Positions 7,915 to 62,507 of a stretch of DNA of 64,000 nt are shown here, one piece after another. Each line of letters opens with the position of its first letter. Position 1 is the stretch's first letter. This stretch comes from a virus: the IMG/VR virus record IMGVR_UViG_3300022225_001767; one strand, 5' to 3'. The notes beneath the pieces were generated by a model. The model saw nothing but the letters and a program-made list of their open reading frames with translations, ran no database searches and was not told the origin of the DNA. The position numbers and the translations under genes were made by a program.

Positions 7915-7949
7915 GTTGACTTTTTACGCCTATATGTTATCCTTTTTTT

Positions 7950-8149
7950 TGTGAGATGCACTTGCTTTGCATGTGTCAGTCATCTCATGGGGCAGCTCCC
8001 CTCTACGACCCACCCGCTCGCCGGGTTACGCATAAGCGTCACTGGAAAACCGCCAGCAACACCCTTGATTGACACCGGACATTATCATGGTGGCAAGGAG
8101 GAACGGGTCGGACTCTACCATGCCACAACATTGATAGGACGGTACCCTT
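7950..8149 (+). ncRNA. Pseudoknotted leader RNA, unit B
   Basis: TGAGATG/CATCTCA and GGGG/CCCC hairpins; CGACCC 8006-8011 pairs GGGTCG 8105-8110 in loop GGAACGGGTCG of stem 8090-8095/8121-8126; TTGACT promoter at 7916. Confidence 0.7.
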
Positions 8150-8821
8150 ATGCAAATTACATTTTCGCTTCGCAACAACAATCTTATTATCGACAGCTCA
8201 CAGAGCTTAGATGACTTTTCCGCCGCATTCGCTGACCTTACAAAGCTGAAAAAGACGCACGTCAAAAGTACGATAAGCAAAACCTTAGGTTTCAGCCATA
8301 TCAAGGCGCTTGAGAGCGCACTTACACCATACATTAGCGCCCCAGATGTTCGCCTTGCCGATAAAACGATAAAGGGGCTTCAAGATCTTTACTGGTGGCT
8401 TGATGATAACATCGACATGAACACTGAGATGTATTTTGATAGCAATGGTGAGGTTGACTCAAAAGCGTTGCAGGACATGTTATCGCCTTTGTTTGATATG
8501 ATGCGACAACAACAGGCATCAGGTAAACCTATCACGAACCGTGCAGAGGAAATCACCGCTAAGCGCGATGGTATACTTTCCGACATGACGAAACATGCCC
8601 TTCAGCATGCGGATGTCGACAACGAAGCGCAGCTAGAGCAAAAACATTATTACGCGGTTCAAGATGACGTTGAAGCACTCAACCGAAAATTATTTAACCA
8701 TGATGATTATGGGAAAGCCTTGGCGCTACTTGAACGTGAGGGCATGCAAGATTTTGCGAACCTTCTTGCCGAGATGACAGAAACGAAAACGGCAGAGGAT
8801 CACATCGCGCATACACTGTAG
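8150..8821 (+). CDS. Helical-motif family protein (unit B); paralog of 61637-62251
   Basis: KSTISKTLGFSHIKAL motif; IIDSSQSLDDFS matches IIDSKHSLDQFS. Confidence 0.8.
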   Translation: MQITFSLRNNNLIIDSSQSLDDFSAAFADLTKLKKTHVKSTISKTLGFSHIKALESALTPYISAPDVRLADKTIKGLQDLYWWLDDNIDMNTEMYFDSNGEVDSKALQDMLSPLFDMMRQQQASGKPITNRAEEITAKRDGILSDMTKHALQHADVDNEAQLEQKHYYAVQDDVEALNRKLFNHDDYGKALALLEREGMQDFANLLAEMTETKTAEDHIAHTL

Positions 8822-8844
8822 CACCATGCTCTCGCCAATCACTT

Positions 8845-8869
8845 AAAGCCCGTACATACGGGCTTTTTT
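8845..8869 (+). terminator. intrinsic terminator between units B and C
   Basis: AAAGCCCGTA-ca-TACGGGCTTTTTT. Confidence 0.75.
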
Positions 8870-8946
8870 ATTTTTGGTTATTTTCAATAAATGTATATTT
8901 TTTCTGATGGATATTGACATCACTCACAGGCGGTGAGATAATCACC

Positions 8947-9174
8947 ATACCTGCTCGACCCTACACTGCGGTGCGTGGTAACAGCAGAGGGAGGCTCCAG
9001 ACCTTCGTCGCATCTCAGGTGCAACAGTACACAATACCGTCGCACTCATGGCTAATACTGGCAACGTCTTCACTTAATAAAGACAACACACCCCTTTTTC
9101 GACATAACGTTACTTGACGAGTCGCAATTGGAACGAGATGCACAATGATGATTACGACTCACTTGGAGAATGAT
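8947..9174 (+). ncRNA. Pseudoknotted leader RNA, unit C
   Basis: GCATCTC 9010-9016 pairs GAGATGC 9135-9141 in loop GGAACGAGATGC of stem GAGTCG 9119-9124/CGACTC 9155-9160; promoter TTGACA-N17-GATAAT at 8914. Confidence 0.7.
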
Positions 9175-9825
9175 ATGTCTACACCTGTTACTATCTTGGG
9201 CGCTGATCGCGCCACGTTAATGAACAACACCCGACGCGCACTGGAAGGATTCCAAAAAGGACGTCCTGTTACGCGTGATGCATTGGTGAGAAAAGCGCTG
9301 GCCACCATCTTAGGGCAAGATAATGAGCACCTCCCTACCGCGGACTTCTCAATTAATAATGCCTCACTGGAGACACGCTTGCGTAACGCTATGGCGCCAC
9401 TTACGTTTTTGCAAGACTGGGGCACTGGGGATGACGAGTACCTTGATTTAAACTTTGAAGCGCGCGCGTGGGATGCCAATGCAGAGAAGGACGACATTAC
9501 CGTCGACTACCGCATCAGCTTCCATATTCCGGGTAAATACGCCTATTTCATTATCGGTAAAAATTATGGCAGTGGGATGGTCGGTGCCATTGAAATCCCG
9601 CTCTCACACCTACCTTACGCGCCGATGTTATTGCTTGAAGGCAGCCGTGATGCGCAGTGGCTTGACGAGTCAGAGATTTTTGTTGGCATCGAAAAGATGT
9701 TGGATGTTTACCATGCTATTTGCGCCGATCCATTGCTAAAAGAAGTTTTTATCGATAACCGCCCTGCACTTTCTCTTAAATCCGCGAAAGATGCAGTCAC
9801 AACATCGCACAGCGAGGTGCGTTGA
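9175..9825 (+). CDS. Helical-motif family protein (unit C)
   Basis: RKALATILGQDNEHL motif; GGAG RBS. Confidence 0.8.
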   Translation: MSTPVTILGADRATLMNNTRRALEGFQKGRPVTRDALVRKALATILGQDNEHLPTADFSINNASLETRLRNAMAPLTFLQDWGTGDDEYLDLNFEARAWDANAEKDDITVDYRISFHIPGKYAYFIIGKNYGSGMVGAIEIPLSHLPYAPMLLLEGSRDAQWLDESEIFVGIEKMLDVYHAICADPLLKEVFIDNRPALSLKSAKDAVTTSHSEVR

Positions 9826-9826
9826 T

Positions 9827-10417
9827 ATGAGCAGCATACTGCTTCATGAGAACAACCAAAGATTAGTGTATGACGATGCCACCTTAACGTGGGTGGCACC
9901 GCAAACCCAATACCCACTCATTAACCCTCATTCTCAGCTTCCGGCCATCCCTAGCCCCCGGCATAAGCATGAGATTGTGGGCACATTAACAATTCGGGTT
10001 TATGATACACGCTCACGTAAAGTAGAGCTTTTCCCCTTGGCATTGCGCCAGGGGGTAATACATACGCCAAAACGTTGCTATGTCGGTGCAAGCTTAACGC
10101 TTGACGCTGTCAATAAGATGGGAATGTGGCTAAAATCCTGCGGAATTAACCATGAGTGGTCGCATCGCTATGTGACAAACATCATCCAAGCACTCAATCA
10201 CGGCGATGTGCTATGTGGCGAAATTGAAGCCATCTACCGCAAAAAGAAACCCAATCCATCTGGAAAGCTTTATTTTGACCGCGCCGCCTACGAGTCTCGC
10301 CCGACCATTTTGACGTGGGGGGTTAACGTTGACCCACCACGCCAACGCGCATGCTCACCCTTGTTGACGTTGGCGGTAAACAACAGTAAAACCATTGACA
10401 ACGCTCACACCTTGTGA
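9827..10417 (+). CDS. hypothetical protein
   Basis: GAGG RBS, starts immediately after the upstream stop. Confidence 0.65.
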   Translation: MSSILLHENNQRLVYDDATLTWVAPQTQYPLINPHSQLPAIPSPRHKHEIVGTLTIRVYDTRSRKVELFPLALRQGVIHTPKRCYVGASLTLDAVNKMGMWLKSCGINHEWSHRYVTNIIQALNHGDVLCGEIEAIYRKKKPNPSGKLYFDRAAYESRPTILTWGVNVDPPRQRACSPLLTLAVNNSKTIDNAHTL

Positions 10418-10456
10418 GACACTGACATTGTCAACACAACGGTTAGAGAACCCATT

Positions 10457-11092
10457 ATGAATCAACCAACATGCGCTTCCATTTTGTCATACGCACCCAC
10501 AGGCTGTCCGTCTCACTTACCATCCGCAGCAGGGGATGTTGATTTATATTTCAACACAGGCGCGCGCCATCATCGTTTTCACGCATTTGCGCTGCTAGAT
10601 GGCAATCAGCTGACAAGCGTTGAGTTTTCACGTTGTCGTACGCATTGCAAGCACAGTGAAGAAAGGCTTAACGCCGTTGTCAAAAGCTATCAGTCATATG
10701 ACAAAAAGCTGGCTCGACAGTACCCTTTTGCCTACGGATTTTTCGCTCACGCTGAGGCAGATACACCGTCACCTAAGGACGCATACCTTGACGACCACCA
10801 ATTCTCGCTTGAGCTCATTGACGCCGAAACAACCATTGATTATTACTGTTGCAGCGTCCCTGTCGCATTAGAGCATGGACGCCAAGGCTACCGCCACTAC
10901 CACAGCCTCCATCTTGTTTTTCATGAGAAGGGGAAGGAGTACGCTTACTCTCTCTTTGATGCGTCCCTGTGTCGTGACGCAATCCAACGCTACAATCAAT
11001 GCGTGGAAGGCACTCGACGCTCACCTAAGTGCGCTGACGACGGTTCACTACCACAGCACTTCTGCCCTGAAGCTTACGCGCTGCAACATTAA
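10457..11092 (+). CDS. hypothetical Cys/His-rich protein
   Basis: ATG after cassette. Confidence 0.7.
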   Translation: MNQPTCASILSYAPTGCPSHLPSAAGDVDLYFNTGARHHRFHAFALLDGNQLTSVEFSRCRTHCKHSEERLNAVVKSYQSYDKKLARQYPFAYGFFAHAEADTPSPKDAYLDDHQFSLELIDAETTIDYYCCSVPVALEHGRQGYRHYHSLHLVFHEKGKEYAYSLFDASLCRDAIQRYNQCVEGTRRSPKCADDGSLPQHFCPEAYALQH

Positions 11093-11111
11093 CTTTGATA
11101 AGGATTAAACC

Positions 11112-11414
11112 ATGCCTACACTAAAGGACTGCATCATTACTGCGCCCAGCACAGGCGCGTGTGAAATTGATATAGAAAAAGCTAAAAAGTACTTCGATAA
11201 ACACTGTTTCATCTCAAAGTGGCAAGGCGAGAAAGGCGATGAATATCGACTGGTGAGAACCAAAGCCAATGCGCGAAATTTCAATCACGTCAAGGTCACC
11301 ATCAGCGAAGAAGATGCATTAACCATCATCGACGCCCTTAACATGTACGAAATCACAAGCCGCATGTTTAACCGCGGCTCAACATTCCACGCGCCACAGG
11401 ACTCAGATTTTTAG
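11112..11414 (+). CDS. hypothetical protein
   Basis: AAGGA RBS. Confidence 0.7.
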   Translation: MPTLKDCIITAPSTGACEIDIEKAKKYFDKHCFISKWQGEKGDEYRLVRTKANARNFNHVKVTISEEDALTIIDALNMYEITSRMFNRGSTFHAPQDSDF

Positions 11415-11474
11415 ATATTGACTTTGCACACAGCATGTGAGACACTAATATTGTCAACACATCAGGGAAAATCA

Positions 11475-11783
11475 ATGCCCAAAACAACCAAAGAACAGCT
11501 TGCTGCCATCAAAGCGGATTACGAGTACGTTAAACGTACGTATGGTGACGTCATCGACTTCACTGGCTCTGGCATGGAAGCGATTCAGCTTGAAAACCTG
11601 CTTAACGCTCCTAGCATAGAGACAGCGGTAGACTGCTTTAAAGAGCGCCTCATTTCCCTTTATGAGGATGGTTACGAAGTGTCGGACAGGGAGTCTAAGG
11701 CTTTGCCGTACTTTGATGATGAACGACTTCAAGCAATTGGAGACCGCCATTTACTGCCCATACCGGACGTCGAACTCGCATAA
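11475..11783 (+). CDS. hypothetical protein
   Basis: ATG after cassette. Confidence 0.7.
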   Translation: MPKTTKEQLAAIKADYEYVKRTYGDVIDFTGSGMEAIQLENLLNAPSIETAVDCFKERLISLYEDGYEVSDRESKALPYFDDERLQAIGDRHLLPIPDVELA

Positions 11784-11827
11784 TGTGAGTATCGAGGCAT
11801 TGTTCACCACATAGAGAGAAAGCCAAA

Positions 11828-12526
11828 ATGAATACACTGTCTAGCATCGCGCCCATCCCAACAACGCTACCTATCCTTATCCATGAGAATGAGGATTATG
11901 GGCAAACGGGGTTTATTTTGCGTCAGTTTGCCACTATGGACAATCCACTGGTGGATTTTGGGAGCGGTGAAATGCTTGCGCACGACATCGTAGAACACAT
12001 TAACGGACTTGACGCAGTGGGGACTATTCATGATGAACTCGTGGCCTTAGGTGCGATGTTCGCCGTGCGTGTCGAAACGGGTGCGATGAGTACGCAAAAA
12101 TGGGCGGGGATGTTTTACGATCAGCTTGTGACGTACTGTGAGTCGCCTTACGCACTACCTTACACCGAGGATGCTGACAGTGCTAGTGCCAATCCAGTGA
12201 ATGCACCATTGTCAAAAGCACTGGCGGCATTACAGGATGATTACGGCATTGTGAGAACGCCAGAAGAACAAAAGGCGTTTGAGGACTTTTGCCGTGCAGC
12301 CAAGTGCCTAGTGGTGCAGGGGTATCAACGTCTCCTACGTGGGTATGCGTGGGCGGGAAACTCAGGGAAAGCCGCCTTGGCGCTTTTTAATCACATTCAA
12401 TCATCGGTGCAACAACACCAAAGCGCGGTAGATGACGAACTCATTGGTACGCCATATGTGCTTTCAATTCACAAACTGTCTGCCACAATGGAACAAGAAG
12501 TATTTGATGGAACAATACAAAATTAA
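11828..12526 (+). CDS. hypothetical protein with possible metal-binding AHDIVEH...E motif
   Basis: AHDIVEHING...HDELVALGA segment. Confidence 0.65.
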   Translation: MNTLSSIAPIPTTLPILIHENEDYGQTGFILRQFATMDNPLVDFGSGEMLAHDIVEHINGLDAVGTIHDELVALGAMFAVRVETGAMSTQKWAGMFYDQLVTYCESPYALPYTEDADSASANPVNAPLSKALAALQDDYGIVRTPEEQKAFEDFCRAAKCLVVQGYQRLLRGYAWAGNSGKAALALFNHIQSSVQQHQSAVDDELIGTPYVLSIHKLSATMEQEVFDGTIQN

Positions 12527-12652
12527 TTACGATAACGCGCGTCATAATGTGCGCTTCTGTGATACCATCTTTTTTATCAGTAATGATAAGGGCTGGCAGG
12601 AAGCAACGTCCATAAAAACCTGCCGCACAGACAATAACGATGCGAGGGCATT

Positions 12653-13831: not shown

Positions 13832-13951
13832 CGAAGGTTAAGTTATTGATTTATAAGGTTTTTTTTGAGGGGTGGGTTCCCACCCACTACCTGCCCCTCA
13901 CCCTCCCCGCTACGCCAAACAATAATACCAAAAACACAAAGAGGCACCGCT

Positions 13952-15208
13952 ATGCGACGCGTATTACGTTTAATTGTTCCCACTCTCGTTTTCTCTTTTG
14001 TTACACTCACCAATATTGCACTCGCGTCACCGACTACAGAAGAAAGACTTGTCGCCAAATACAACAGCGCAATGTTCCAAATATCGACATCACTAAAAGG
14101 CGCAAGCGGCATCACCTCATACGGCACAGGCTTTCTCATAAAAAACAATCTCCTTGTTACCAATTATCACGTTATTGATGATTATTTTCTTGCGCAGGAA
14201 GACTATAAAATTATTGTTACGCGAGGCACCGACAAAACCATCTATCCGGTATCGCTTCACACCGTCGATATGCTCAACGACCTCGCCATATTTACGGTAG
14301 AGACAAATACAGACGACATTACGCCTTTTACATTAGGGGAAAGTAACGTTCAACAGGGCGCAACCGTATACAGCATGGGCAACCCAAAAAGCTCTGGTTT
14401 TATGATTGTGCCTGGCGTATACAACGGTGTACGAGAGGCTTCCAAAAAGGAACTCCTTAATTTTACTGGCTCGCTTAATAGCGGCATGAGCGGAGGACCT
14501 GTTATCGACAGTAACGAAATACTCGTAGGTGTCAATGTGTCCTCTTCTGGCAATGGCATGGGATACGCGGTCAATGCAAAACACCTTAAGGCGCTAGTGG
14601 CTCACGTCAACAGCAACCCGCCCAATACAGATAGCCTTTCTGTTGCAGAAGAACAGCTTCATGCGTGGTCATCGCTTATCACCGATATGCTGAAAGGTAA
14701 ATTCAGCGCGCCGTCAAATGCACTAGAAGTAGACTCGCCGTTCGTGAAATGCAACAGCGATAAAGTTGATGATGACGCTATCTCTGTCCATATAAAACAT
14801 TGCTATACCTTGGAGGATTTGGGACTTGGCGGTAGACACACATTAGAGGGTTTTTCAGTATTTTCTTACCACGTAGAAGACAGCGAACCAAGCTTTATAC
14901 GGCGTATAATGGGGTTAACCCCTCTGTTTCTCTTGTCTCAATTATCCCCTCTCATTCAGGACGATGACGCTTCTCTCTACAGCAGTTCATCCTGTGAGTT
15001 TATCGTTACCACATTAACAAACAATCGTCGGGCAAAGATCAGAAACTGCGCAGTACGTGGCAACACATCGCCGTCCTATTGGATACATCGCGTCACCATT
15101 TCTTACGCCATCGACAGCAACAATGCGATCGCCAATGACATTACATTTCAAGGGCTATCCCCCATGGCGAGTGCCACATTGCTTGCTGACATTATAGAGG
15201 AGCTTTAA
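13952..15208 (+). CDS. exported trypsin-like (S1) serine protease
   Basis: Signal-like N-terminus; VTNYHV (His), DLAI (Asp), SGMSGGP (Ser). Confidence 0.85.
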   Translation: MRRVLRLIVPTLVFSFVTLTNIALASPTTEERLVAKYNSAMFQISTSLKGASGITSYGTGFLIKNNLLVTNYHVIDDYFLAQEDYKIIVTRGTDKTIYPVSLHTVDMLNDLAIFTVETNTDDITPFTLGESNVQQGATVYSMGNPKSSGFMIVPGVYNGVREASKKELLNFTGSLNSGMSGGPVIDSNEILVGVNVSSSGNGMGYAVNAKHLKALVAHVNSNPPNTDSLSVAEEQLHAWSSLITDMLKGKFSAPSNALEVDSPFVKCNSDKVDDDAISVHIKHCYTLEDLGLGGRHTLEGFSVFSYHVEDSEPSFIRRIMGLTPLFLLSQLSPLIQDDDASLYSSSSCEFIVTTLTNNRRAKIRNCAVRGNTSPSYWIHRVTISYAIDSNNAIANDITFQGLSPMASATLLADIIEEL

Positions 15209-42775: not shown

Positions 42776-44166
42776 ACTACCCAGCGACATCGCTTCGCTC
42801 TGATCACTGGGCTTCTACAGTCTAGCTTTGAAGCTAGGCCGCTTCTTTTTTCTCAGATCCAACAGCAAACTTCGATAGCTCGAAGGCTTTCGCTTTACTA
42901 GCTGATTTCTGCTGAGATATGGGGATTACCCTTGCGACGATCCCAGCCGCAATTAAGTCTGTCTCACCTGTTTTTGCTATGCTTTTAGCCGCTGAGAAGT
43001 CGCGGTTTTGATACGTTCCGCAAGCAGTACAGGTGAAATATCTATCGCTCAATGTTAAAACATGGCGTTGGCCGCATTCTGAACAAATCCCTGTGGATTT
43101 TTCAAAGCGACCAATTTCGTGATAGAGCTTACCTTCCAACTCAGCCTTGTATTTCGAGAGCTGGGTAATTAAGCCCATCACATTGTCAGCCACCATACTG
43201 CCGTTGAACTTTTGCATCGCTTTCACATTCAAATCCTCAAACACCAGAATATCAGTTTCATTGGCTATCTGTCGTGACACTTGATGTGCAAAGTCGAGTC
43301 TTTGCCGTGAGATTTTGCCGTGAAGCTTATTGATGCGTTGCTTGGTCTTTTGCCAGCGATTAGACCCTTTCTTTCGCCTTGCAAGCTGGCGTTGCAAGTG
43401 GCTTAATTTCTCTTTTGATTGTTTTAAGAACTTCGGGTTGTTGGCAGTAAAGCCATTTGAGCCCACTACCGTTTGCTTAGAGTTAATATCAAAACCTGTG
43501 ATGCTTTCCAGTAGTTTTTTAGCGGCTTTACATTCCACTTCTTGCGTAATGCTGCATTCCCATTTTCCATGACGATACTGGACAGTAACGGTCTTAATTT
43601 GGCTCACTAAGTCGCGGTGTAAGATGATGGGTATTTTACCCACTTTTGGGATGCTAATAGAGTCATTTTCAATGCGTATGCAATTGGAATTGTTCACCGC
43701 TCGAAAGCTGTCATTGTGAAGCTTCTTTCGCTTATAAGAGACTTTATGTTTTGGAAAACGTTGCAACCGACCTTTTGAAAAGGCGTTTTTTAGTGCTGTT
43801 TCCAGATCTCTTGCGACTTGCTGGGCTGCTGCTGAGTCAAACGCCTTTACCCAAGCAAACTCATCAAAAGACTTTAGTTCTTTGAGCAATGAAGCCATAT
43901 CCCTGTAAAACAAGAACGTCTTATCGTACTCGTATCGACGCATTGTTTCAGACAACAGCAGGTTCCAAATGCCACGGGCTGTTGCACCAAACTCAATGAG
44001 TCTAGCCTCCTGCTCCAGCGTTGGCTTAAGCCTGTAATTGTATCTGAGCGTCTTTTTCATATACTGTATAGATTACTGTATATAGTAGAGCTGTCAACCT
44101 GAATTTACCGATTCATCCCCGCGACATCACTTCGTTCTGATCACGGGGTTTTCTCGGCAACATTAG
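42772..44166 (-). mobile_element. IS200/IS605-family tnpB-only element
   Basis: Related subterminal hairpins at about 42780-42812 and 44116-44148; right end TTCAC; TTTAT target 5' of left end; no tnpA. Confidence 0.85.
42834..44060 (-). CDS. tnpB: RNA-guided endonuclease TnpB
   Basis: N-terminal YRLKPT helix-turn-helix-type segment, RuvC GFDIN / VFEDLNV / RD, Zn finger CSECG...CTACG. Confidence 0.93.
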   Translation of the reverse strand: MKKTLRYNYRLKPTLEQEARLIEFGATARGIWNLLLSETMRRYEYDKTFLFYRDMASLLKELKSFDEFAWVKAFDSAAAQQVARDLETALKNAFSKGRLQRFPKHKVSYKRKKLHNDSFRAVNNSNCIRIENDSISIPKVGKIPIILHRDLVSQIKTVTVQYRHGKWECSITQEVECKAAKKLLESITGFDINSKQTVVGSNGFTANNPKFLKQSKEKLSHLQRQLARRKKGSNRWQKTKQRINKLHGKISRQRLDFAHQVSRQIANETDILVFEDLNVKAMQKFNGSMVADNVMGLITQLSKYKAELEGKLYHEIGRFEKSTGICSECGQRHVLTLSDRYFTCTACGTYQNRDFSAAKSIAKTGETDLIAAGIVARVIPISQQKSASKAKAFELSKFAVGSEKKEAA

Positions 44167-44526
44167 ATAAACGCACACGGCGCTTGCGTGGCACGTTCAC
44201 TGTCACGCAATACGTAAACAACAAGGAAATATATAATGGTTAACTTTGATTTGGGTCCTAAAGGGGCCGAAGCAAGATGACAGCAAATGCAGAGACTTGT
44301 TTTGGGTCAATGCCCAAGGTGAATGGTGGTCTGAAAACGACCAAGAGTGGGTGCCAGCAGAGCGCTATGACGTAACGTGGCTGCAAACGATTGCCGCTAA
44401 GTACGCGGCATAATAAATTAAGTTTTGACTTTCGCTGTTTTTTTAGGAAAACATGAAAAAAACGTTGACAATAAACACAGGTTTTGCGATACTAATCCTG
44501 TCAACACAACAACGGAGTAACACTTT

Positions 44527-45940: not shown

Positions 45941-46121
45941 CTGATGCGTCAACCATCAGTATTGAACTTAAAGTCCCGGCACCTGTTGTTTTGTTGACGT
46001 AAAACGCCTTCGCCGGGCACCCTTTACGTCGGCGGCCTGTTGTGTTGACGCCTTCTCGCCGCCGACCCTCACATTGTTGTGACGACAACGCCCGTACCAG
46101 GTTATGCTGGCGGGCTTTTTT
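45941..46121 (+). ncRNA. candidate antisense sRNA against the GTCAACACAAC leader box
   Basis: GC stems 45975-45980/46012-46017 and 46028-46036/46058-46066 enclose CCTGTTG(TTT)TGTTGACG; U-tract terminator 46090-46121. Confidence 0.6.
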
Positions 46122-49469: not shown

Positions 49470-51641
49470 CTATTCATTCTCTTGTGGCAAGGCCGCTTGC
49501 TCACGTGCCGCCTCACACGCGTCTTTAATGGCGTTAAACACCTCGTACGCCACGCTATTAAGCTCTGGCGGTGTGTCACTATTGGAAAACCCTTTAGCTT
49601 GCGCCAATCGTCCCGAACTGCGTTCAAATTGATAGGTGAACGTTTCATCAGACCTATTACCTGTAGACAGGGCGAAAATCACCGCTGAGCCATCCGTACA
49701 ACGGTCAGCATAGTAGCGTGTGCCTACACAGTGATGTTGAGCACGACCTAATGCACGGAGGGCTTTTGTGTCCTCCGGCAGTGTTAGTGTGACGTGTGAC
49801 GGGAGGCTTTCAGTGATAGTGTCAAGCTGCGCAATAGCATCGGCCTGATAGAAACGCGCATTGACGGTACTGATTGAGAAGTCACGTTGCTGCTTGTTGC
49901 TTAAGTAGCTATGAAATGCTTCACCGTAGTCTTTCTTAGACGCAAGCCATTTACGCACCAACGCACACTGTTTGGCGCTTTCATCAGGGCAATCTCGTGC
50001 AATGAGCGTTGCTAACATACGAAACACATCTCGCGCTTCGGTAATGGCGTTATCCATCACAACGGCTACCATTTCATCGTGTGACAAAAAAGCCAAACAG
50101 GTGCGTAGTGACGGCGCATCAATGGCAAGCCCTGCGCGCTTCTGCGCCTGTTTACCTGTGCCTAATGCACTATTAATCTGCGCAAGAAACTGAATGTATC
50201 CGTGACGGTCGAGTTTGCCACGTGAATTGGTAAACACGCTCTGCAATGCGCTTAGTGCGGTCAAGGACTCCGCCTCTTGACTGTCGAACAAGAACTGCAC
50301 CTCTTGAGGGTGTTTTGAACCAATGAGCATTTTGGTCATCGCCTTGGGCGAATTAACACTCTTGAAGTCAAACAGATCATACCCGTAATCATTATGCAAG
50401 ATGAGGTAGTTCTTTAATGACGTAAGCAACGCGAACGCGGGGCTTTCATTGAAGAGTGTTTTATCATAATCCTTATTAGAACTCATAATGCTCTCACGTA
50501 CACGGTAGAGACACTTAAACGTGCTGTCTGAGACATTGGGGTGCATCGCGACACGCATTTGGATAGTGTGATCGGGGTCGTACGCCAGCATATCCAAGAT
50601 GCCCGACGGGACATTACCACTGCTTAGCAGCTTGCGTACTAATAAGGAGTCAACAGGCTCGCGCTCGATGAATTGTGAAACGACCTCCGGTGACAATGTA
50701 TCTACGCGGTCAAGAATGGCGTAGCACAACGCGTCACAGCTGCCCTGGTATTCCAACAGCATCGCTTCCGCTTGCGCATCTGAGAAATTAAGCCGGTGAA
50801 AACCTTCATCAATACCGTATTGAGAGGCGTCGCACTTAACCAGCTCAATAAAATCGGATTGCTTCATGTCAGCGTTTTTAAATGCGGCGTCGTACACATC
50901 CGATACATACCTTGCTCGACAGTCTGTATTGGCATTGTTTTGCACATACGCTAAAACTTCGCGAAATTGCTCCATCGTATGTTCGTGATTATCTAGCAAC
51001 GCAATGCGTATCCGGCATGTGCTATTAGGCTCTATTTCCAGCGCTAACAGGCGATTAAACAACGAACGTGAACATGCGGCGTTTTCAGCCACTTTGATGT
51101 ATATGTTGGTATGGAGCGTCTTATCTTCAACGCGTGGAACAGCAGCAACGATATCGCTCAATACAGCATCACATGACGCAGCTTGCCCCATTTCAGCAAG
51201 CAGCGATGCATTATTCATTGCAATAATAGCATCAGCACGTTCCCACGGGAATGCGCGATGATTGACTATGTTCTGCGCCATGAAACTTACATTTCCGTCA
51301 GAATACTCACCATCAATAACGCGATTGAGAAGACGGTTATACAGTGCCTCTGGCACTCGCTCGCTGTACAGTGAAAGCACATCCAGCGCAGGATTAAGCG
51401 CCAGCAATTCGCTGACCTCATTGTCGCTAAATGCGGGGTGATTGAGCATCTGTGCCATACTCTCAATACTTTTAGCATTGGCGTAGTACCCCGCCACAAA
51501 TCTCGGTGTCTCGCTTTCTAATACATCCCGCATGATACACTTGGGGAAATTAGGTGCACTCAGTGCGACCTGCATCTTTCGCGAGCAGCAGCTATTAAAC
51601 ATTTTTTTTAGTTGCGATGGACTGTAATAACGGTGAGTCAT
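49470..51641 (-). CDS. helical-repeat protein with C-terminal PcfJ-like domain
   Basis: ALNP/VAENA/VAMHPN repeats; LRALGRAQHHCVG...YADRC...QAKGFSN. Confidence 0.68.
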   Translation of the reverse strand: MTHRYYSPSQLKKMFNSCCSRKMQVALSAPNFPKCIMRDVLESETPRFVAGYYANAKSIESMAQMLNHPAFSDNEVSELLALNPALDVLSLYSERVPEALYNRLLNRVIDGEYSDGNVSFMAQNIVNHRAFPWERADAIIAMNNASLLAEMGQAASCDAVLSDIVAAVPRVEDKTLHTNIYIKVAENAACSRSLFNRLLALEIEPNSTCRIRIALLDNHEHTMEQFREVLAYVQNNANTDCRARYVSDVYDAAFKNADMKQSDFIELVKCDASQYGIDEGFHRLNFSDAQAEAMLLEYQGSCDALCYAILDRVDTLSPEVVSQFIEREPVDSLLVRKLLSSGNVPSGILDMLAYDPDHTIQMRVAMHPNVSDSTFKCLYRVRESIMSSNKDYDKTLFNESPAFALLTSLKNYLILHNDYGYDLFDFKSVNSPKAMTKMLIGSKHPQEVQFLFDSQEAESLTALSALQSVFTNSRGKLDRHGYIQFLAQINSALGTGKQAQKRAGLAIDAPSLRTCLAFLSHDEMVAVVMDNAITEARDVFRMLATLIARDCPDESAKQCALVRKWLASKKDYGEAFHSYLSNKQQRDFSISTVNARFYQADAIAQLDTITESLPSHVTLTLPEDTKALRALGRAQHHCVGTRYYADRCTDGSAVIFALSTGNRSDETFTYQFERSSGRLAQAKGFSNSDTPPELNSVAYEVFNAIKDACEAAREQAALPQENE

Positions 51642-55869: not shown

Positions 55870-55895
55870 GCTTAATTAAAACAAGGAGTACGCTT

Positions 55896-57249: not shown

Positions 57250-57495
57250 CGGACACATTGAACGTAAAAAAAAGAGGCTACACCAAGCCTCTTTTTATGG
57301 TAACTTTAACGCTACTTTTTTCGTCTACGCGCTGCAAGCAAGCCTAACAACCCAAAAGCGCTAATGGCTAATGGTGCGGATGCATCAATCAGATTACCTT
57401 GCGCGTTAAGCGCAATGCCGTTCATTGAATATTTCATTGACAACACTCTCAGAGTTTGAGATACTGGTTTTGTCAGCACAACAATGAGGTTTCAC

Positions 57496-57753
57496 ATGAT
57501 CATTCATACCGAAAACACAGCGAAGAAAGCACCTGAAACGTTTTCGTACTATTTCAGCCACGCCACCGGAAAAATGGTGCACTTTGCTTCTCGCACCAAT
57601 GCAGTGAATTCACCTTCCATGCTGATTGAGATTGTTGTCGATGCCCACCTTTATGCGCAAGACATTGATGTTATTCTTGATATCAATCTTCCTAAAGCCC
57701 AACAGGCCGCGACAGCTGCTATTGAAAAACAACAAAGTGAGGCAACTGTATGA
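57496..57753 (+). CDS. hypothetical protein
   Basis: GAGG RBS after cassette. Confidence 0.65.
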   Translation: MIIHTENTAKKAPETFSYYFSHATGKMVHFASRTNAVNSPSMLIEIVVDAHLYAQDIDVILDINLPKAQQAATAAIEKQQSEATV

Positions 57754-58109
57754 CTTACAGTATAAAATGGGACACGCTGAAAAAACGCGCCATAAAACAC
57801 TTTATGGGTGAAACCGATATCAACAATGGCCTGATTGGAGGGGCGAGCCGAGACCTTGCTATTGCGGCCATCATGAAACACAACATCACACCTTCGTCAT
57901 CGCCACTATGCGATGAAAGCAACAACAACTGGCGCGCCCTTTTTGAGGCTGAGCGTCAAGAGGGTCAGCGAACCATTTCGCATTGGGATGTTAGATTGGC
58001 GCAGACGCTTATCGCAAAATTTCCTACCATTATCAGCGCTAAATATGCCAATGTGAAACCTGATGCTGATGTGAATGACAAAGGCGAATGGGTGCTCTTT
58101 TTCTCTTAG
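57750..58109 (+). CDS. hypothetical protein
   Basis: ATGA overlap. Confidence 0.68.
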   Translation: MTYSIKWDTLKKRAIKHFMGETDINNGLIGGASRDLAIAAIMKHNITPSSSPLCDESNNNWRALFEAERQEGQRTISHWDVRLAQTLIAKFPTIISAKYANVKPDADVNDKGEWVLFFS

Positions 58110-58195
58110 TGTAACGCAGCAATAGACGTAAACCTGTTGACAATCCACACAGGTTTTGAGATACTAACCTTGTCAACACAACAGGAGATAACGCT

Positions 58196-58900
58196 ATGTC
58201 AACTTTCGAGAAACAATGGGGCACACTTCATTTTTCTAAATCAGGCTACCCCGCTTTTGTGCGCCTTGTAAGGAAAGAGTACAACAGCTACATCGCGGAA
58301 CTGCGCGACAACGCCTTAAAGGCACACGCTAAATTAGCCAAGCTTAAGCCTCGCGAGCGCAAGGGGGCGTTTGATAGCATGGTCTCTAGGAACACACTAT
58401 ACCTTAATCCTCCGCGTGAAAGTCACAATTGTCTCGTTTACTCAAACGGCTTTGAGTCATCGGCTGCCGACTTGGACAAGCTTCGCGATGAAATGTTTCG
58501 CGGCAAAAATGACGCGCTGACGAAGCCACGCATGGGAAGCTTTCCAACGCTCACAAATAAACAGACTTCCTTTAGCATTGATTGTGATGACGGCACGTTT
58601 ACACTAGAGCAGTGCAGTGACGGCTCAGGGACGCTACATTGGCTCGTGCAATGGGATAATCATGCCGTTCGAGACGCTCAAAACACCGGCACTTACAGTG
58701 CGGTAGATGCCGCATTATCGAACCACAAATGGAGACGCAATGAAGGGGGCGAGTGGTACTATGAGGATGAGCATTCTCGCGAAGCCGCAGAGGAAAATGG
58801 CACAGAAAGCACATCTGTATCCTCTCGATTCGGGCCGCTAGGCGAACAGATGCATCATGATCGTTTCAACTTGTCTCGCGGCAAACGCAGGCGCGCTTAA
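58196..58900 (+). CDS. hypothetical protein
   Basis: ATG after cassette. Confidence 0.75.
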   Translation: MSTFEKQWGTLHFSKSGYPAFVRLVRKEYNSYIAELRDNALKAHAKLAKLKPRERKGAFDSMVSRNTLYLNPPRESHNCLVYSNGFESSAADLDKLRDEMFRGKNDALTKPRMGSFPTLTNKQTSFSIDCDDGTFTLEQCSDGSGTLHWLVQWDNHAVRDAQNTGTYSAVDAALSNHKWRRNEGGEWYYEDEHSREAAEENGTESTSVSSRFGPLGEQMHHDRFNLSRGKRRRA

Positions 58901-59187
58901 CCCTTAGCAGCAAACACAACGGCACAGCATAGGGTTGTGCCGATTATTTAAGCGGGAGACACTATGGCATTGCCTACATTCCATGAATTACTGTCACTTG
59001 GCATCAAAACGTATGGTGACGCTGATAGCGAAAGCGCAGACGGCATTTATGAATTAAATGGTGAGACGTATGTTTTAACAGGCACCACGGTTATCAAGCA
59101 AAGTGATGTTGATTAGGCTCATCGTCTATTGACAACGCTCATCGAATTTGCGATACTAACCCTGTCAACACAACAAAGGTTAGCCCC

Positions 59188-59703
59188 ATGAACTCAGCTT
59201 ACGCACATGCCAATTTTATCTTTTTGCTTCAACTTTCAGGTGAAGCCCTTAATTACGCGCTTGCTGATGCCATGAGATTGTCACCTCGCATCAATACCGC
59301 AACAGGCCGTACAGAAGTTCCTGTGACGCCAAAGCTTGAGCGAGTCATGAGTATAACTTTTCCTGAAGCGGAATACGGCAGCATGGTTGAATTCTCACCT
59401 GCCACTAACCCTGTCCACGCAGTGATCATTCAAAAGTCGTTTCGCATTAACGCCAAGCGTTTTGATACAACAGGCGACAAGTTCATTCCGCTTCGTAAAA
59501 ACAATACCACGTTTTCCCCTGACGATTCACGCAAAGCGGCCTACTTGACGGGTGATACGGTTATGGAAGCCACCACGCGCCTTGCGCTAATGCTGACGTT
59601 AGGATTGCATGGTATTAAAAACAACCTCCACGGCTATGATGCAGAAAGCGTGAAAATCAATTTTCGCCCCAGTGTCTTAGCACGCCTTCGGACTTTTCCG
59701 TAA
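59188..59703 (+). CDS. hypothetical protein
   Basis: ATG after cassette. Confidence 0.7.
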   Translation: MNSAYAHANFIFLLQLSGEALNYALADAMRLSPRINTATGRTEVPVTPKLERVMSITFPEAEYGSMVEFSPATNPVHAVIIQKSFRINAKRFDTTGDKFIPLRKNNTTFSPDDSRKAAYLTGDTVMEATTRLALMLTLGLHGIKNNLHGYDAESVKINFRPSVLARLRTFP

Positions 59704-59793
59704 GGCGAATCACCTATTAACACATCGTTTTATGTTGACTTTTTTGCTCAAATTTGAGACAATTTAATCGTCAACACAACCAGAGAGAAAACC

Positions 59794-60279
59794 ATGAGCA
59801 AAACCTTTAATCTTTTCGCGCCCGTTGTATCTGATTTGAACACCGTTGTTCAGCAGAACAAAAATACTGTATCTATCGCTTCACTTGTCAGTATTGCGGC
59901 AATCGCAGCCTTTCAAGCCACCATCAATATGGGCAAGCAGGATGTGATCACGAAGGTAGGCAAGCTTGACCCTGACTTCATCTTAACAGAAACTCGTCGC
60001 CCATTGTCGTTTTATGAACAAGCAGTGGTGTGTGCGGCTGAAGCGACCATCATCGAAACCCTGTCACTTCACAGCATCACGCCAGATGAAAAAATTCGTG
60101 ATATCATCGTAGAGCAATGGATAAACGAAGGGGCGTTTTTGACGGCTTCTCGCAGCACCGCAGGGTCAATGATGACAGAGGCAGAGCGTGCCGCTGCACG
60201 AGGCCGATCTGAAGAAGAAATTCTTGCCGAATTAGCTTCCGCAGAGGGCGGATGTGCGGGTGGTGCATGCACCATATAG
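59794..60279 (+). CDS. hypothetical protein with C-terminal GCAGGACTI Cys pair
   Basis: ATG after cassette; paralog of 12653-13144. Confidence 0.75.
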   Translation: MSKTFNLFAPVVSDLNTVVQQNKNTVSIASLVSIAAIAAFQATINMGKQDVITKVGKLDPDFILTETRRPLSFYEQAVVCAAEATIIETLSLHSITPDEKIRDIIVEQWINEGAFLTASRSTAGSMMTEAERAAARGRSEEEILAELASAEGGCAGGACTI

Positions 60280-60385
60280 GGTGCACTTTCGCCACTTCTC
60301 ACTTTTAGGTACGTTGCACGAAACGGCAGCCTGTTATGACACGCTGCCAACATCACCACGTTATAATCACCAACAAGGACACACT

Positions 60386-61105
60386 ATGCGTACGTCATTT
60401 GTCACCTTGCTGTTTTCTGTCTTTCTGTCTACATCGGCTTTCGCTGTTGATGTCGTAAAGAAAAGCAGTAGCGGTATTTGCCACGACACCAGCAGCAGCT
60501 GGTATGAAAAAACGAAGAACTTCACAGCCTATGCCACCATGGAGGCCTGTATTGATTCTGGTGGACGCGCACCGCGCAATTACACCGGCACCAAACCGAA
60601 AGACAACCTGCCGCAAGGCGAACGCTATGATCGCGACGCATGGGAACACTGGGTGGATGACGATAATGATTGTCAGAACACGCGCGCTGAGGTCTTGATT
60701 GCTCACTCAACGACCCCCGTTCTTTACAATAACATTATCAAACGATGTTATGTGACACGGGGGAAGTGGTATGGCGTCTACTCCGGCAAATTCTATTATG
60801 ACGACGACGATCTTGATATTGACCACATTGTGCCCCTTGCTTATGCGCATGCGCACGGTGGTGATAAATGGAGCGCCGCTCAAAAGCGTGCTTTTGCCAA
60901 CGATATGGACAACCTTCTCCCTGTTAGCGCATCATTAAACAGGCAGAAATCGGCAAAAGGGCCGACTGATTGGATGCCGCCCTATCAACCTTACCGCTGT
61001 GAGTATTTGGGTGAGTTTGACGGCATTATGAAAAAGTACTCCCTTGAGTATTTCCCTCACGAACTGCGCGTTATCAACAAAATGAAAAGCGCCTGCGGTA
61101 TGTAA
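60386..61105 (+). CDS. secreted HNH-family endonuclease (DUF1524-like)
   Basis: Signal peptide; YDRDAWEHW, CQNTRAEVL, LDIDHIVPL, NLLPVSASLNRQKS. Confidence 0.85.
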   Translation: MRTSFVTLLFSVFLSTSAFAVDVVKKSSSGICHDTSSSWYEKTKNFTAYATMEACIDSGGRAPRNYTGTKPKDNLPQGERYDRDAWEHWVDDDNDCQNTRAEVLIAHSTTPVLYNNIIKRCYVTRGKWYGVYSGKFYYDDDDLDIDHIVPLAYAHAHGGDKWSAAQKRAFANDMDNLLPVSASLNRQKSAKGPTDWMPPYQPYRCEYLGEFDGIMKKYSLEYFPHELRVINKMKSACGM

Positions 61106-61131
61106 ACACCAAGACGTTTATTGCATGTACT

Positions 61132-61159
61132 AAAAAAGCGCCTCATTTGGCGCTTTTTT
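61132..61159. terminator. bidirectional intrinsic terminator
   Basis: AAAAAAGCGCC-tcattt-GGCGCTTTTTT. Confidence 0.75.
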
Positions 61160-61180
61160 GATTTGTGACCCTTATCGGCA

Positions 61181-61561
61181 TTAGCACAGCAGGTCGACAA
61201 CAACGGCCAATCGCCGCTTCTGTTCATTTAATGCTTCCGCAAGAGTAACCAGTTCATCGTCGGCATCCGCCATTTGAGCCAGCATTACGATGCGCTTTGT
61301 GTGCTCTGCAATACTATGCGACAATTCCGACTTCATTGTTTCGAGGTCGGCCTTTGATGGTGTAGACGCATTAACCTTTGAAGTGAGCGCCTGCATATCA
61401 ACACCTTTTAACGTTCTGCCGATATGAATGTTACCCGACAGTGGGTTTAAGGCATTGCTAAAATAGAAACCATGCTTATTCTTTCTGAGCGTTAAATGCA
61501 TGGCTTTTTCTTTTGTGATAAGCGCACTTAAATGCACTTGTGTTACCGTGACTTCAGACAT
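61181..61561 (-). CDS. hypothetical protein
   Basis: AAGGAG RBS. Confidence 0.7.
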   Translation of the reverse strand: MSEVTVTQVHLSALITKEKAMHLTLRKNKHGFYFSNALNPLSGNIHIGRTLKGVDMQALTSKVNASTPSKADLETMKSELSHSIAEHTKRIVMLAQMADADDELVTLAEALNEQKRRLAVVVDLLC

Positions 61562-61636
61562 TGCTTTTCTCCTTGGTGGTGAAGTTAAATTATACCACCA
61601 TATGACCTATTTTCCAATTGCTTTTGCCCTTCTTAT

Positions 61637-62251
61637 TTAGCGCGACGTTAATACGTCATACTCTAAACTGTTCCTCACAATACTGCCCATGATCTCAGCA
61701 ACATCAACCAGGCCTTGCTGCTCAAGTGTCACCAGGGCTTCTTTTAACAAGGGGTGGTTGGCCAGCTCTCGCGCATCATCACTTAACGCCTCTGCGGTAG
61801 ACTCGTGCGCGTCAGCGGGCACATCGCTCATATCATCCACTTGCTGTGCGTCCAATATGTTTGATGACACTTGTGATTTCCACATATTTATTTTTTGCTC
61901 GCATGCTTTCAATGCATCATTTGGCGCATCTTCATCGCTATGCTTCTGTTGAAATACATGCGCTTTAGGGGGGAGGGCGGCCAGCACGTCTGACGCCCTA
62001 ACCTCGTGTGTATCGTCAAGTAACGCCCCCGCTTTCGCTTGGATTTTTAGCCAGTTGTACAGGCCATCAATAGCCGCAGAGGGAGCAATCACCGGTGCCG
62101 GTGTTAATTGATTGGTTAGTATCGCAATATCAGCACAGTTTTGCCCTTTTGCGATGGCGCTTCGCAGTCGCGTGGCGGGCATCTTCGTGTGCTGCGCAGT
62201 GTCTTTTGAAAATTGGTCGAGTGAATGTTTGCTATCAATAATAATAAACAC
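61637..62251 (-). CDS. Helical-motif family protein (unit H); paralog of 8150-8821
   Basis: IIDSKHSLDQFS...RLRSAIAKGQNCADIAIL; GLYNWL; EALVTLEQQGL. Confidence 0.8.
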   Translation of the reverse strand: MFIIIDSKHSLDQFSKDTAQHTKMPATRLRSAIAKGQNCADIAILTNQLTPAPVIAPSAAIDGLYNWLKIQAKAGALLDDTHEVRASDVLAALPPKAHVFQQKHSDEDAPNDALKACEQKINMWKSQVSSNILDAQQVDDMSDVPADAHESTAEALSDDARELANHPLLKEALVTLEQQGLVDVAEIMGSIVRNSLEYDVLTSR

Positions 62252-62467
62252 AATAATATCCTCTTTGTCGTCGGTATAAGGTGATGAGTTCGGCCATTGC
62301 CCAACAACCGACTAAAAAGTCATATTGTGGTTGATGCAAATAGTGGTTGATGCAGTTTACCTTACTCAGGCAGACCATAAGACAGGTCGGCGAGTGGCCG
62401 TAGAGGGATGCCGTCCCAAGCACCGGCTTATCAGATGCATAACATGCAAATGGGCAGCGCTATGGTG
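62252..62467 (-). ncRNA. Pseudoknotted leader RNA, unit H
   Basis: CGGCCA (62395-62400) pairs UGGCCG (62291-62296) in loop of stem GUCGGU/ACCGAC; TTGACA-N17-TATTAT with -35 at 62494-62499. Confidence 0.7.
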
Positions 62468-62507
62468 AAAATAATATCAACATCAACCTGTGCTGTCAAC
62501 ATAAAGC

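Follow-up and report, generated by a model that had tools for sequence, protein, structure and literature searches.

The window analysed here, the whole 64,000-nucleotide stretch of IMG/VR virus record IMGVR_UViG_3300022225_001767, contains two paralogous genes, one on each strand, that are preceded by long leaders with matching hexamer complementarities, and the locus raises the question of whether these leaders share an RNA structure and what such a structure would do for the genes downstream. The element is plasmid-like and carries a PcfJ-like gene.

Paralogous genes and their leaders

The proteins encoded at 8150 (gene B) and 61637 (gene H), described previously as aligning along their length, share 27% identity over 199 aligned residues (BLASTP; E 4e-13), with residues 12-210 of 223 in B matched to residues 3-192 of 204 in H, and constitute the sole strong paralog pair among the long-leader genes of the window. 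The family to which they belong is acidic (pI 4.3-4.9) and, when clustered at 50%, has about 50 representatives, every one of them metagenomic; no member was found in the 185,000 species genomes searched. Neither protein contains a Pfam or NCBIfam domain, and a Rep-like domain is absent. A structure model with a pLDDT of 89 had as its best structural neighbour an uninformative match to a helical hairpin only (Z 6.3), the best match for a low-confidence model of the N-terminal domain scored Z 4.1, and structural comparison of the models yielded no informative fold match. An assignment of B and H as replication initiators was rejected, given the lack of both domain and fold matches. A motif of about 50 amino acids, WLxDNVxMGTxIxFDxxxxV, is common to the family and to two plasmid proteins annotated as "DUF957 domain-containing," from Alteromonas mediterranea pAMCP48-600 and Shewanella baltica pSBAL11702 (tblastn E 2e-5 to 4e-5); the family matched the Alteromonas protein with an hhalign probability of 96% (E 1.3e-9) over this segment of about 50 residues only. 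At the gathering score, the Pfam DUF957 model (PF06117) matched neither the B/H family nor either of the DUF957-annotated plasmid proteins, and the other Pfam and NCBIfam models likewise gave no hit to the plasmid proteins. The Alteromonas gene differs from B and H in having an upstream gap of only 89 nt, in which no copy of the leader 5' domain was found.

Each unit consists of a sigma-70 promoter, similarly placed, followed by a leader of 200 to 212 nt and the gene. Transcription start sites are putative, and RNA helices are predicted.

Unit B:
7890-7912: terminator hairpin 5' of the promoter
7916-7943, + strand: promoter (TTGACT, 16-nt spacer, TATCCT, TG upstream)
7950-8149, + strand: leader B, about 200 nt, with its probable start placed from the -10 box
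7953-7986, + strand: P0 stem, GAGAUG (7953-7958) with CAUCUC (7981-7986), enclosing a small P1 hairpin, UGC/GCA
7989-8001, + strand: P2 hairpin, GGGG-CAGCU-CCCC (DNA, GGGGCAGCTCCCC)
7999-8007, + strand: invariant CCCUCUACG (DNA, CCCTCTACG)
8006-8011, + strand: P3 5' strand, CGACCC
8012-8026, + strand: P4 hairpin, ACCCG-CUCGC-CGGGU
8074-8143, + strand: predicted hairpin masking the ribosome-binding site (RBS), ACCG/CGGU, UAUCA/UGAUA, GUGGCA/UGCCAC
8097-8116, + strand: P7 cap, GGAG/CUCU, with a 12-nt loop holding the P3 3' strand (by inspection; low probability in nested ensembles)
8105-8110, + strand: P3 3' strand, GGGUCG, followed by GACTC in the DNA, 39 nt 5' of AUG
8135-8138, + strand: Shine-Dalgarno (SD) sequence, AGGA, inside the RBS-masking hairpin
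8150-8821, + strand: gene B, encoding an acidic protein of 223 aa (pI 4.9)

Unit H:
62508-62533: bidirectional terminator 5' of the promoter
62471-62499, - strand: promoter (TTGACA, 17-nt spacer, TATTAT, TG upstream)
62252-62464, - strand: leader H, about 212 nt, putative start
62419-62461, - strand: P0 stem, AGCGCUG with CGGUGCU, including two G.U pairs
62436-62448, - strand: P1 hairpin inside P0, UGCAU-GUU-AUGCA
62405-62417, - strand: P2 hairpin, GGGA-CGGCA-UCCC (DNA, GGGACGGCATCCC)
62399-62407, - strand: invariant CCCUCUACG (DNA, CCCTCTACG)
62395-62400, - strand: P3 5' strand, CGGCCA
62365-62394, - strand: P4 hairpin, CUC..GACC/GGUC..GAG
62343-62354 and 62327-62338, - strand: tandem 12-mer UGCAUCAACCAC (DNA, TGCATCAACCAC), 16-nt period
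62249-62329, - strand: predicted RBS-masking hairpin, CACAAUA/UAUUGUG (including the GUG start), CUUUUU/AAAGAG (SD), GUCGGU/ACCGAC
62285-62303, - strand: P7 cap, UGGG/CUCA, with an 11-nt loop holding the P3 3' strand (by inspection)
62291-62296, - strand: P3 3' strand, UGGCCG, followed by AACTC in the DNA, 39 nt 5' of GUG
61637-62251, - strand: gene H, paralogous to gene B and encoding an acidic protein of 204 aa (pI 4.9)

Common to both leaders are P2, the invariant CCCUCUACG (unchanged in 5/5 distinct leaders), a hexamer, and the exact complement of that hexamer downstream. Their 5' blocks align with a score of 16, against 9.2 +/- 1.25 for dinucleotide shuffles, none of 1,000 of which reached 16. 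Within the window there is no further copy of the leader and no match to any Rfam 15 family at gathering thresholds, and the leaders designated L001, L002, and L004 contained no Rfam match of any score at E values up to 10. The leaders share no conserved reading frame, and neither leader B nor leader H contains a terminator, which points to translational control rather than attenuation. The folding energies of the two leaders are not significant (z-scores of the minimum free energy [MFE], -0.39 and -0.71).

The predicted long-range helix P3 and RBS hairpin

The hexamer and its complement constitute a perfect 6-bp Watson-Crick duplex in both B (CGACCC/GGGUCG) and H (CGGCCA/UGGCCG), in which pair 3 is A-U in B and G-C in H and pair 6 is C-G in B and A-U in H. 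The preliminary description had read the leaders as CGACCC-A...GGGTCG-GACTC and CGGCCA-C...TGGCCG-AACTC, with two pairs differing on both strands, and these readings are exact. Its register for the 3' strands, with 8/11 positions identical, is locally clearly better than that of a MAFFT global alignment, which places them one column out of register. In both leaders, the distance from the 3' strand to the start codon is exactly 39 nt, and the RACUC that comes after this strand would form P7; the exact complement of the hexamer occurs downstream by chance in 2.5 to 3% of shuffles per leader. The 6-bp helix is intact in B and its close relative L001 and in H and its close relative L003, and a diverged H-like metagenomic locus, L002, retains five of the six pairs, with pair 6, one of the two compensated pairs, broken (U.U). 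Exact compensation at two sites has an estimated probability of about 0.03 under independent change, but B and H provide one independent comparison and the change at pair 3 could have proceeded via a G.U intermediate.

To the preliminary description we add that the 3' hexamer lies at the tip of a predicted hairpin of about -24 kcal/mol that covers the SD sequence. The 3' domain alone folds with -24.1 kcal/mol in B and -24.0 kcal/mol in H, pair probabilities in the RBS hairpin are 0.62 to 0.99 and 0.75 to 0.92, respectively, and the predicted hairpin hides the SD sequence in both leaders and the start codon also in H. Given the position of the hexamer at this tip, P3 is predicted to be a pseudoknot between a loop and a single strand relative to the most probable local fold. 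The earlier reading of a compensated pseudoknot in a duplicated gene-leader pair is thus upheld as regards the duplication, the two double changes, and the pseudoknot topology relative to the probable local fold; it is weakened by its dependence on a single comparison and by the pair that L002 breaks. The P3 duplex has an energy of -9.5 to -9.9 kcal/mol and, when forced as a nested helix, costs no more than 1.5 kcal/mol relative to the MFE. In nested ensembles, P7 has a probability of about 0 to 8%, and in the H lineage each P3 strand finds competitors for pairing nearby, the strong ones of the 5' strand being GGC/GCC in H (0.71) and GGUCG/CGGCC in L002 (0.81). The CCUCU within CCCUCUACG is complementary to the H-type SD sequence AGAGG; the unconstrained MFE structure of H contains this pairing and leaves P3 unused, and the pairing is clean in the H lineage only.

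Selection and covariation across three lineages

Three lineages (B, H, and L002) were available, so covariation statistics are weak. Between H and L002, identity is 54% in the protein, 33% at third codon positions, 76% in the leader, and approximately 90% in the 3' domain; the excess of leader identity over that at third codon positions reveals purifying selection on the leader. The comparison of B with L001 is uninformative, as the flanking DNA is conserved as much as the leader. L002 covaries in P0, P1, P2, P4, and P7. Within the H lineage, 6 of 53 predicted pairs, contributed by P0, P1, and P4, changed on both sides, and no pair of P0, P1, or P2 was broken. In B, H, and L002, respectively, P2 has G-C, A-U, and U-A as its fourth pair, and P7 reads GGAG/CUCU, UGGG/CUCA, and UGAG/CUCA, its outer pair having changed from G.U to U-A. 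In B, P0 is of unrelated sequence and its stem still forms; P4 of H is replaced in L002 by an unrelated 9-bp hairpin. The G.U pairs of P0, P1, and P7 fit the sense RNA only. The RBS hairpin differs between H and L002 only by one-sided changes from A-U to G.U and lacks compensatory support because the 3' domain is nearly invariant between them.

Models of leader function

We favor, with moderate confidence, the view that the leader is a cis-acting translational gate of its gene. In this model, an old duplication of the whole unit (promoter, 5' untranslated region [UTR] of about 200 nt, and gene) would have given rise to B and H. The 5' domain would be made up of P0/P1, the P2 hairpin with its 4 bp, invariant CCCUCUACG, and the lineage-specific hexamer, and the 3' domain of a stable hairpin (about -24 kcal/mol) in which the SD sequence and, in H, the start codon are concealed; the tip of this hairpin, a small P7 stem with a loop of 11 to 12 nt, would present the complement of the hexamer, so that P3 pairing docks the 5' domain onto the masked RBS. 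The default state would be off, with P3 stabilizing the closed fold or nucleating it; the CCUCU adjoining the hexamer could, in the H lineage, alternatively pair with the SD sequence AGAGG. Opening would require a trigger, for which the encoded protein, another factor, temperature, and cotranscriptional kinetics are options. A FourU/ROSE-type thermometer was rejected as a class, since CUUUUU/AAAGAG of H lies in a hairpin of -24 kcal/mol that is not marginal and B uses UAUCA/UGAUA.

A less probable but substantial competitor accepts a functional leader with a masked RBS but holds that P3 does not form, the 9-mer with its hexamer and the 3' hexamer each having been kept for reasons of their own (an anti-SD role, for example, or binding of a protein or small RNA) and their complementarity and matched changes being coincidental. 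The break at one of the two covarying pairs in L002, the competing local partners in the H lineage, and the CCUCU:SD pairing already present in the unconstrained MFE structure of H are in its favor, and the many helices from which to choose make the naive probability of about 0.03 optimistic; against it, the exact complement occurs once per leader, with the 39-nt spacing and the loop setting shared by both leaders, the change from A-U to G-C affects an internal pair, and four of six positions per strand are kept amid diverged surroundings. We consider it unlikely that the leader is principally a target of the element's trans-acting small RNAs, whose binding would shift the balance of folds and make P3 secondary. 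The 12-nt direct repeat reported earlier in leader H was located at two sites, L002 has the same A-to-U change in both copies, and the 3' copy overlaps the first strand of the RBS hairpin; the tandem UGCAUCAACCAC in H, together with AGCAACAC and UUGACACC in B, resembles the GUCAACAC mRNA tag of the element. However, complementarity to the anti-tag loop spans only 5 to 7 bp and is interrupted by a bulge, the candidate small RNA at 45975-46121 does not form more stable duplexes with the leaders than with shuffled versions of them (fractions, 0.92 and 0.13), and the exact repeat is absent from B. A signal at the DNA level, in which each hexamer is one half-site of an operator with widely spaced inverted repeats and the two change together to suit a dimeric DNA-binding protein, is the least credible of these readings: half-sites do change in concert, and the H arms were reported as an inverted repeat in a repeat search, but the arms are 6 bp only, lie 93 to 98 bp apart inside the transcribed region, have neighboring helices several of which rely on RNA-only G.U pairs, and are accompanied by hairpins of unrelated sequence kept in the same places (P0 and P4).

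Plasmid replication control offers one of the closest known precedents. Upstream of repZ or repA in IncI1, IncB, and IncL/M plasmids, a loop on a 5' stem-loop pairs with a partner that adjoins the SD sequence; an antisense RNA competes for the loop, and translation of a leader peptide is required. Our leaders likewise are plasmid-borne, with an RBS in a hairpin and a short pairing of a loop with a distant strand (here, the loop of the RBS hairpin with the strand after CCCUCUA), the translational role being a prediction. In IncI1 (ColIb-P9), the pseudoknot is essential for initiation of RepZ translation (PMC8053102). A circuit of this type, in which a pseudoknot activates translation of a replication gene and is itself gated by antisense RNA and a leader peptide, is largely refuted and very improbable here, although the plasmid-like element with its PcfJ-like gene, the long-range pseudoknot near a masked RBS, and a 20-codon upstream open reading frame in H that overlaps the start codon speak for it. 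The orientation is reversed, with the loop capping the RBS hairpin rather than a 5' hairpin, and the proteins lack a Rep-like domain. Crude consensus scans found no antisense promoter on the - strand of leader B and one promoter-like site near H, located in the start of the coding sequence and having no counterpart in B, and inspection of the antisense strand after P0 in both leaders revealed A-runs and no U-runs; a promoter-plus-terminator pair is therefore not conserved. An Inc-type leader peptide was likewise rejected: the upstream reading frame differs from that of the gene in H, coincides with it in L002 (from the same AUG), and has only 4 codons in B, so that no frame is conserved.

Two further systems bear comparison. 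In the 5' UTR of the maturation gene of the levivirus MS2, a pyrimidine-rich stretch directly 3' of a 5' hairpin pairs at long range with the SD sequence and encloses several hairpin arms of a cloverleaf, and translation is off except during a folding window (PMC4615214). The H-type CCUCU directly after P2 can similarly pair with AGAGG, but the leaders differ in having a second, local RBS hairpin and P3, in the restriction of clean CCUCU:SD pairing to one lineage, and in belonging to a DNA element rather than an RNA phage. The Escherichia coli rpsO leader, an autoregulatory operator, switches between a hairpin and a pseudoknot around the RBS, and the gene product, ribosomal protein S15, binds the pseudoknot only (PMC3985624); it is a useful model for possible autoregulation here. 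The pseudoknot of rpsO is compact and local and takes in the start region, in contrast to the long-range arrangement here, and binding of the acidic B/H proteins, which have no recognizable fold, to their own leaders would be hypothetical. More speculatively, and in our view doubtfully, the leader could represent a new class of self-contained sensor RNA whose P2, CCCUCUACG, and P3 build a binding pocket, either for a small ligand or for a dedicated protein, which might be the acidic product of B or H; RNA and gene would then be one module, anciently duplicated on giant marine plasmid-like elements beside a separate tag/anti-tag RNA network.

In summary, the leader probably belongs to the translational control RNAs, as a conventional but uncatalogued example represented so far by only three lineages. 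The paralog pair amounts to a natural compensatory-mutation experiment, so that a simple reporter would allow a direct test of the long-range helix; should P3 prove not to exist, the leader would reduce to an ordinary 5' UTR that masks the RBS. If the gate model holds, the leaders would define a cis-regulatory RNA family, so far uncatalogued, that accompanies an uncharacterized protein family, and they would give this very large marine mobile element, which already seems to depend heavily on RNA signals, a second, different layer of RNA control.

Genes B and H and their leaders

Gene B (8150-8821, plus strand; leader of about 200 nt) and gene H (61637-62251, minus strand; leader of about 212 nt) encode proteins that, as the preliminary description had claimed, align near end to end (27% identity, E = 4e-13; BLASTP), and in an all-versus-all comparison of the window ORFs they formed the sole strong paralog pair among the genes with long leaders. 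All of its sequence statements about the hexamers of the two leaders and their flanks were correct; the elements are as follows.

7989-8001, plus strand: leader B, GGGGCAGCTCCCC
7999-8007, plus strand: leader B, CCCTCTACG
8006-8011, plus strand: leader B, CGACCC, 5' strand of the long-range pairing P3
8105-8110, plus strand: leader B, GGGTCG, 3' strand of P3, then GACTC
62405-62417, minus strand: leader H, GGGACGGCATCCC
62399-62407, minus strand: leader H, CCCTCTACG
62395-62400, minus strand: leader H, CGGCCA, 5' strand of P3
62291-62296, minus strand: leader H, TGGCCG, 3' strand of P3, then AACTC

The hexamers of each leader form a perfect Watson-Crick duplex, and two of its pairs have indeed changed on both strands, pair 3 from A-U in B to G-C in H and pair 6 from C-G to A-U. 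When the 5' leader parts were compared with the promoters left out, the local alignment score was 16, a value reached by none of 1,000 dinucleotide shuffles (9.2 ± 1.25); homology therefore holds for the leaders as well as the genes. The hexamer following CCCUCUA has its exact complement downstream in only 2.5 to 3% of shuffles per leader, and in both B and H this complement lies exactly 39 nt 5' of the start codon, despite differing intervening sequence. Given homology, we put the probability of matched, exactly complementary 3' changes at the two altered 5' positions arising by chance at roughly 0.03, our own estimate and an optimistic one, because the helix was picked after inspection.

The 12-nt direct repeat described for leader H is present (TGCATCAACCAC twice, with a 16-nt period; 62327-62354, minus strand); it also occurs in the metagenomic relative L002 at about 2732-2765, both copies there carrying an identical A-to-U change, and leader B holds two looser copies, AGCAACAC and UUGACACC, at about 8055-8076 (plus strand). 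The 12-mer resembles GUCAACAC, the start tag of many short leaders of the element, but duplex energies with a candidate anti-tag RNA were not significant. In the short leaders of many genes, a strong promoter is followed within a few bases by GTCAACAC or GTCAGCAC (plus strand, approximately 2690, 19930, 40420, 44505, 48270, 55385, 57475 and 59165); B and H fall outside this class. Apart from promoter hexamers, the remaining long leaders in the window have no motif in common with B and H, to which they are not related in sequence.

Architecture, alternative folds and conservation

Both units have a sigma-70-type promoter immediately after a terminator hairpin. The common 5' domain comprises, in order, a P0 stem around the small P1 hairpin, the 4-bp P2, the invariant 9-mer CCCUCUACG, the P3 5' hexamer and, directly after it, P4; the common 3' domain is predicted to be a long hairpin within which the ribosome-binding site (RBS) is buried, with folding energies for the isolated domain of -24.0 (H) and -24.1 (B) kcal/mol.

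RBS hairpin of H: CACAAUA/UAUUGUG (takes in the GUG start), CUUUUU/AAAGAG (SD) and GUCGGU/ACCGAC; pair probabilities 0.57-0.92
RBS hairpin of B: ACCG/CGGU, UAUCA/UGAUA (overlaps SD AGGA) and GUGGCA/UGCCAC; pair probabilities 0.62-0.99
P7: GGAG/CUCU in B, UGGG/CUCA in H and UGAG/CUCA in L002

The P3 3' hexamer lies in the apical part of the RBS hairpin, and the conserved RACUC after it can close P7, a 4-bp helix assigned partly by inspection, so that the hexamer is displayed in a loop of 11-12 nt; P3 would therefore be a loop-to-single-strand pseudoknot. P7 carries little weight in the nested-fold ensemble, and a nested algorithm cannot score P3 and the RBS hairpin jointly. The original reading of a pseudoknot with compensatory changes holds in part: the two double changes stand and the loop-to-single-strand pairing is plausible, but L002 keeps five pairs and loses the sixth (U.U).

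The minimum free energy (MFE) z-scores of the leaders are ordinary (-0.39 and -0.71), and with P3 imposed as a nested helix the fold is at most 1.5 kcal/mol less stable than the MFE. With P3 forced in H and L002, the adjoining CCUCU pairs with the SD AGAGG to give a second RBS-masked conformation, of which B has, by inspection, a weak version only. In the H lineage the P3 strands have rival local partners. The second 12-mer copy in H (CAACC), and UUGACACC in B, can pair with the tip of the hairpin in its 5' half; the resulting helix, which is invariant or without covariation support, might compete with the RBS hairpin. An extended helix, P3b (CCGAC/GUUGG in H, CUCAG/CUGAG in L002), is not claimed; it is one base out of register between lineages, has no counterpart in B and would compete with both P4 and P7. 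Two 7-nt stretches far upstream in leader B are perfectly complementary to its start-codon region (CUUAUGC/AUGCAAA; plus strand, 8030-8036 with 8147-8153 and 7966-7972 with 8150-8156), and long-range masking of this start codon is also possible.

H and L002 share 54% identity in their proteins and 33%, a saturated value, at third codon positions, against 76% in the leader and about 90% in its 3' domain; the leader is therefore under purifying selection, and no conserved reading frame was found within it. At its fourth pair, P2 has G-C, A-U and U-A in the three lineages that form the comparative basis (B, H and L002). Within the H lineage, RNAalifold gave changes on both sides at 6 of 53 pairs, in P0, P2 and P4, and no pair was broken in P0, P1 or P2; in B, P0 and P4 are of unrelated sequence yet are still formed at the same places. 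The RBS hairpin, nearly invariant between H and L002, is conserved without compensatory support. The MAFFT alignment moves the P3 3' strand by one column, which makes the automated pair count too low for P3, and the pairs were checked directly.

Comparison of B with the B-like locus L001 was dropped as an uninformative test of conservation, the flanking genes being equally conserved (97-100%). Gene B itself (8150-8821 versus L001 3001-3672) is 81-92% identical per 200-nt block and 79% at third codon positions, far below its leader and upstream genes (97-100%); this local divergence hotspot suggests either recombination or that the protein is under diversifying selection. In H and L003, a 20-codon upstream ORF, out of frame with the gene, starts at an AUG that overlaps the 3' strand of P3 (62291-62298, minus strand); in L002, where this AUG lies at about 2793, a 1-nt deletion places it in frame with the gene. 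The in-frame AUG accounts for the N-terminal extensions, probably not real, of the database family proteins P0007 and P0008.

The protein family and its distribution

Both B and H are acidic, as is the family as a whole (pI 4.3-4.9), and a high-confidence model (pLDDT 89) gives them an N-terminal beta-hairpin and helices, after which come long helical hairpins. Nothing informative turned up in Pfam, NCBIfam, Foldseek against the PDB, a wide VIA-align search (whole protein and N-terminal domain) or the ESM Atlas. The family is small: among 1.8 billion cluster representatives, 50 family representatives were found at E values up to 1e-3, from metagenomes only; none was found in the species-genome and viral collections, and the plasmid and phage collections yielded no close DNA relative. 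The metagenome scan returned four loci only; the related contigs carry CETM/CETR accessions.

L001: B-like, 87% protein identity
L002: H-like gene, 54% protein identity
L003 and L004: H-like, about 91-100% protein identity

The only protein matches in the plasmid and phage collections were to a central 50-aa DUF957-like segment, which the B/H family has in common with plasmid proteins of Alteromonas and Shewanella annotated as DUF957 domain containing; the motif is WLxDNVxMGTxIxFD. Current Pfam and NCBIfam models match neither these plasmid proteins nor B and H.

L005 2968-3642: Alteromonas mediterranea pAMCP48-600, DUF957 domain-containing protein
L006 2980-3351: Shewanella baltica pSBAL11702, DUF957 domain-containing protein

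Searching with a covariance model built on the 5' domain recovered only the six known copies, with no further copy in the window, and Rfam gave no match inside the leaders at gathering or permissive thresholds. The DNA pattern GGGNNNGCNNCCCTCTACG occurred at at least 120 loci in viral contigs, which were treated as chance because no family member was encoded at any of them. Elsewhere in the window lie a trypsin-like serine peptidase gene within a long run of small plus-strand genes (13865-15208, plus strand); an IS605-family TnpB-like gene with OrfB_IS605, Cas12f-like TNB and HTH domains (42834-44060, minus strand), beside which an AT-rich, repeat-bearing flank (44061-44200) could hold the end of the element or its guide RNA; and a gene for a 723-aa protein with a C-terminal PcfJ-like domain (49470-51641, minus strand), whose sole relatives in the plasmid collection, on Vibrio plasmids of roughly 300 kb, are 22% identical.

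Proposed translational control and its alternatives

The reading best supported by the sequences and predicted folds, and one that we hold to be somewhat favored, is that the leader acts in cis as a gate on translation. In all predicted folds of low energy the RBS is masked, and P3 would dock the conserved 5' domain at the apex of the masking hairpin, with stabilization of the OFF state its likelier role. No terminator was found inside leader B or H, which argues against transcription attenuation. A functional leader in which P3 does not form is a less probable but still serious alternative. Targeting of the leader by small RNAs of the element is improbable, since its duplexes with the candidate RNA at 45975-46121 were no better in energy than those of shuffled leaders. 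Action as a DNA-level operator is the least credible explanation, and several predicted G.U pairs fit a sense RNA only.

In IncI1, IncB and IncL/M plasmids a pseudoknot controls repZ/repA translation (PMC8053102), and these are the closest functional analogues of the B and H leaders, in which, however, the geometry is reversed and three tested defining features of the Inc systems were not found. An IncI1/IncB-like antisense circuit is very unlikely; neither an antisense gene nor a leader peptide nor a Rep protein, which define it, was found. In the 5' UTR of the MS2 maturation gene, the sequence right after a 5' hairpin is base-paired to the SD around a cloverleaf (PMC4615214), an arrangement that the H-lineage alternative fold resembles. 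The rpsO operator (PMC3985624) may serve as a model for possible autoregulation of B and H. On comparative grounds, the B/H feature is a real, selected and structured leader family, in which the long-range pseudoknot P3 is plausible; its predicted organization is of a kind already known, that of RBS-masking, pseudoknotted translational leaders, here in three lineages.
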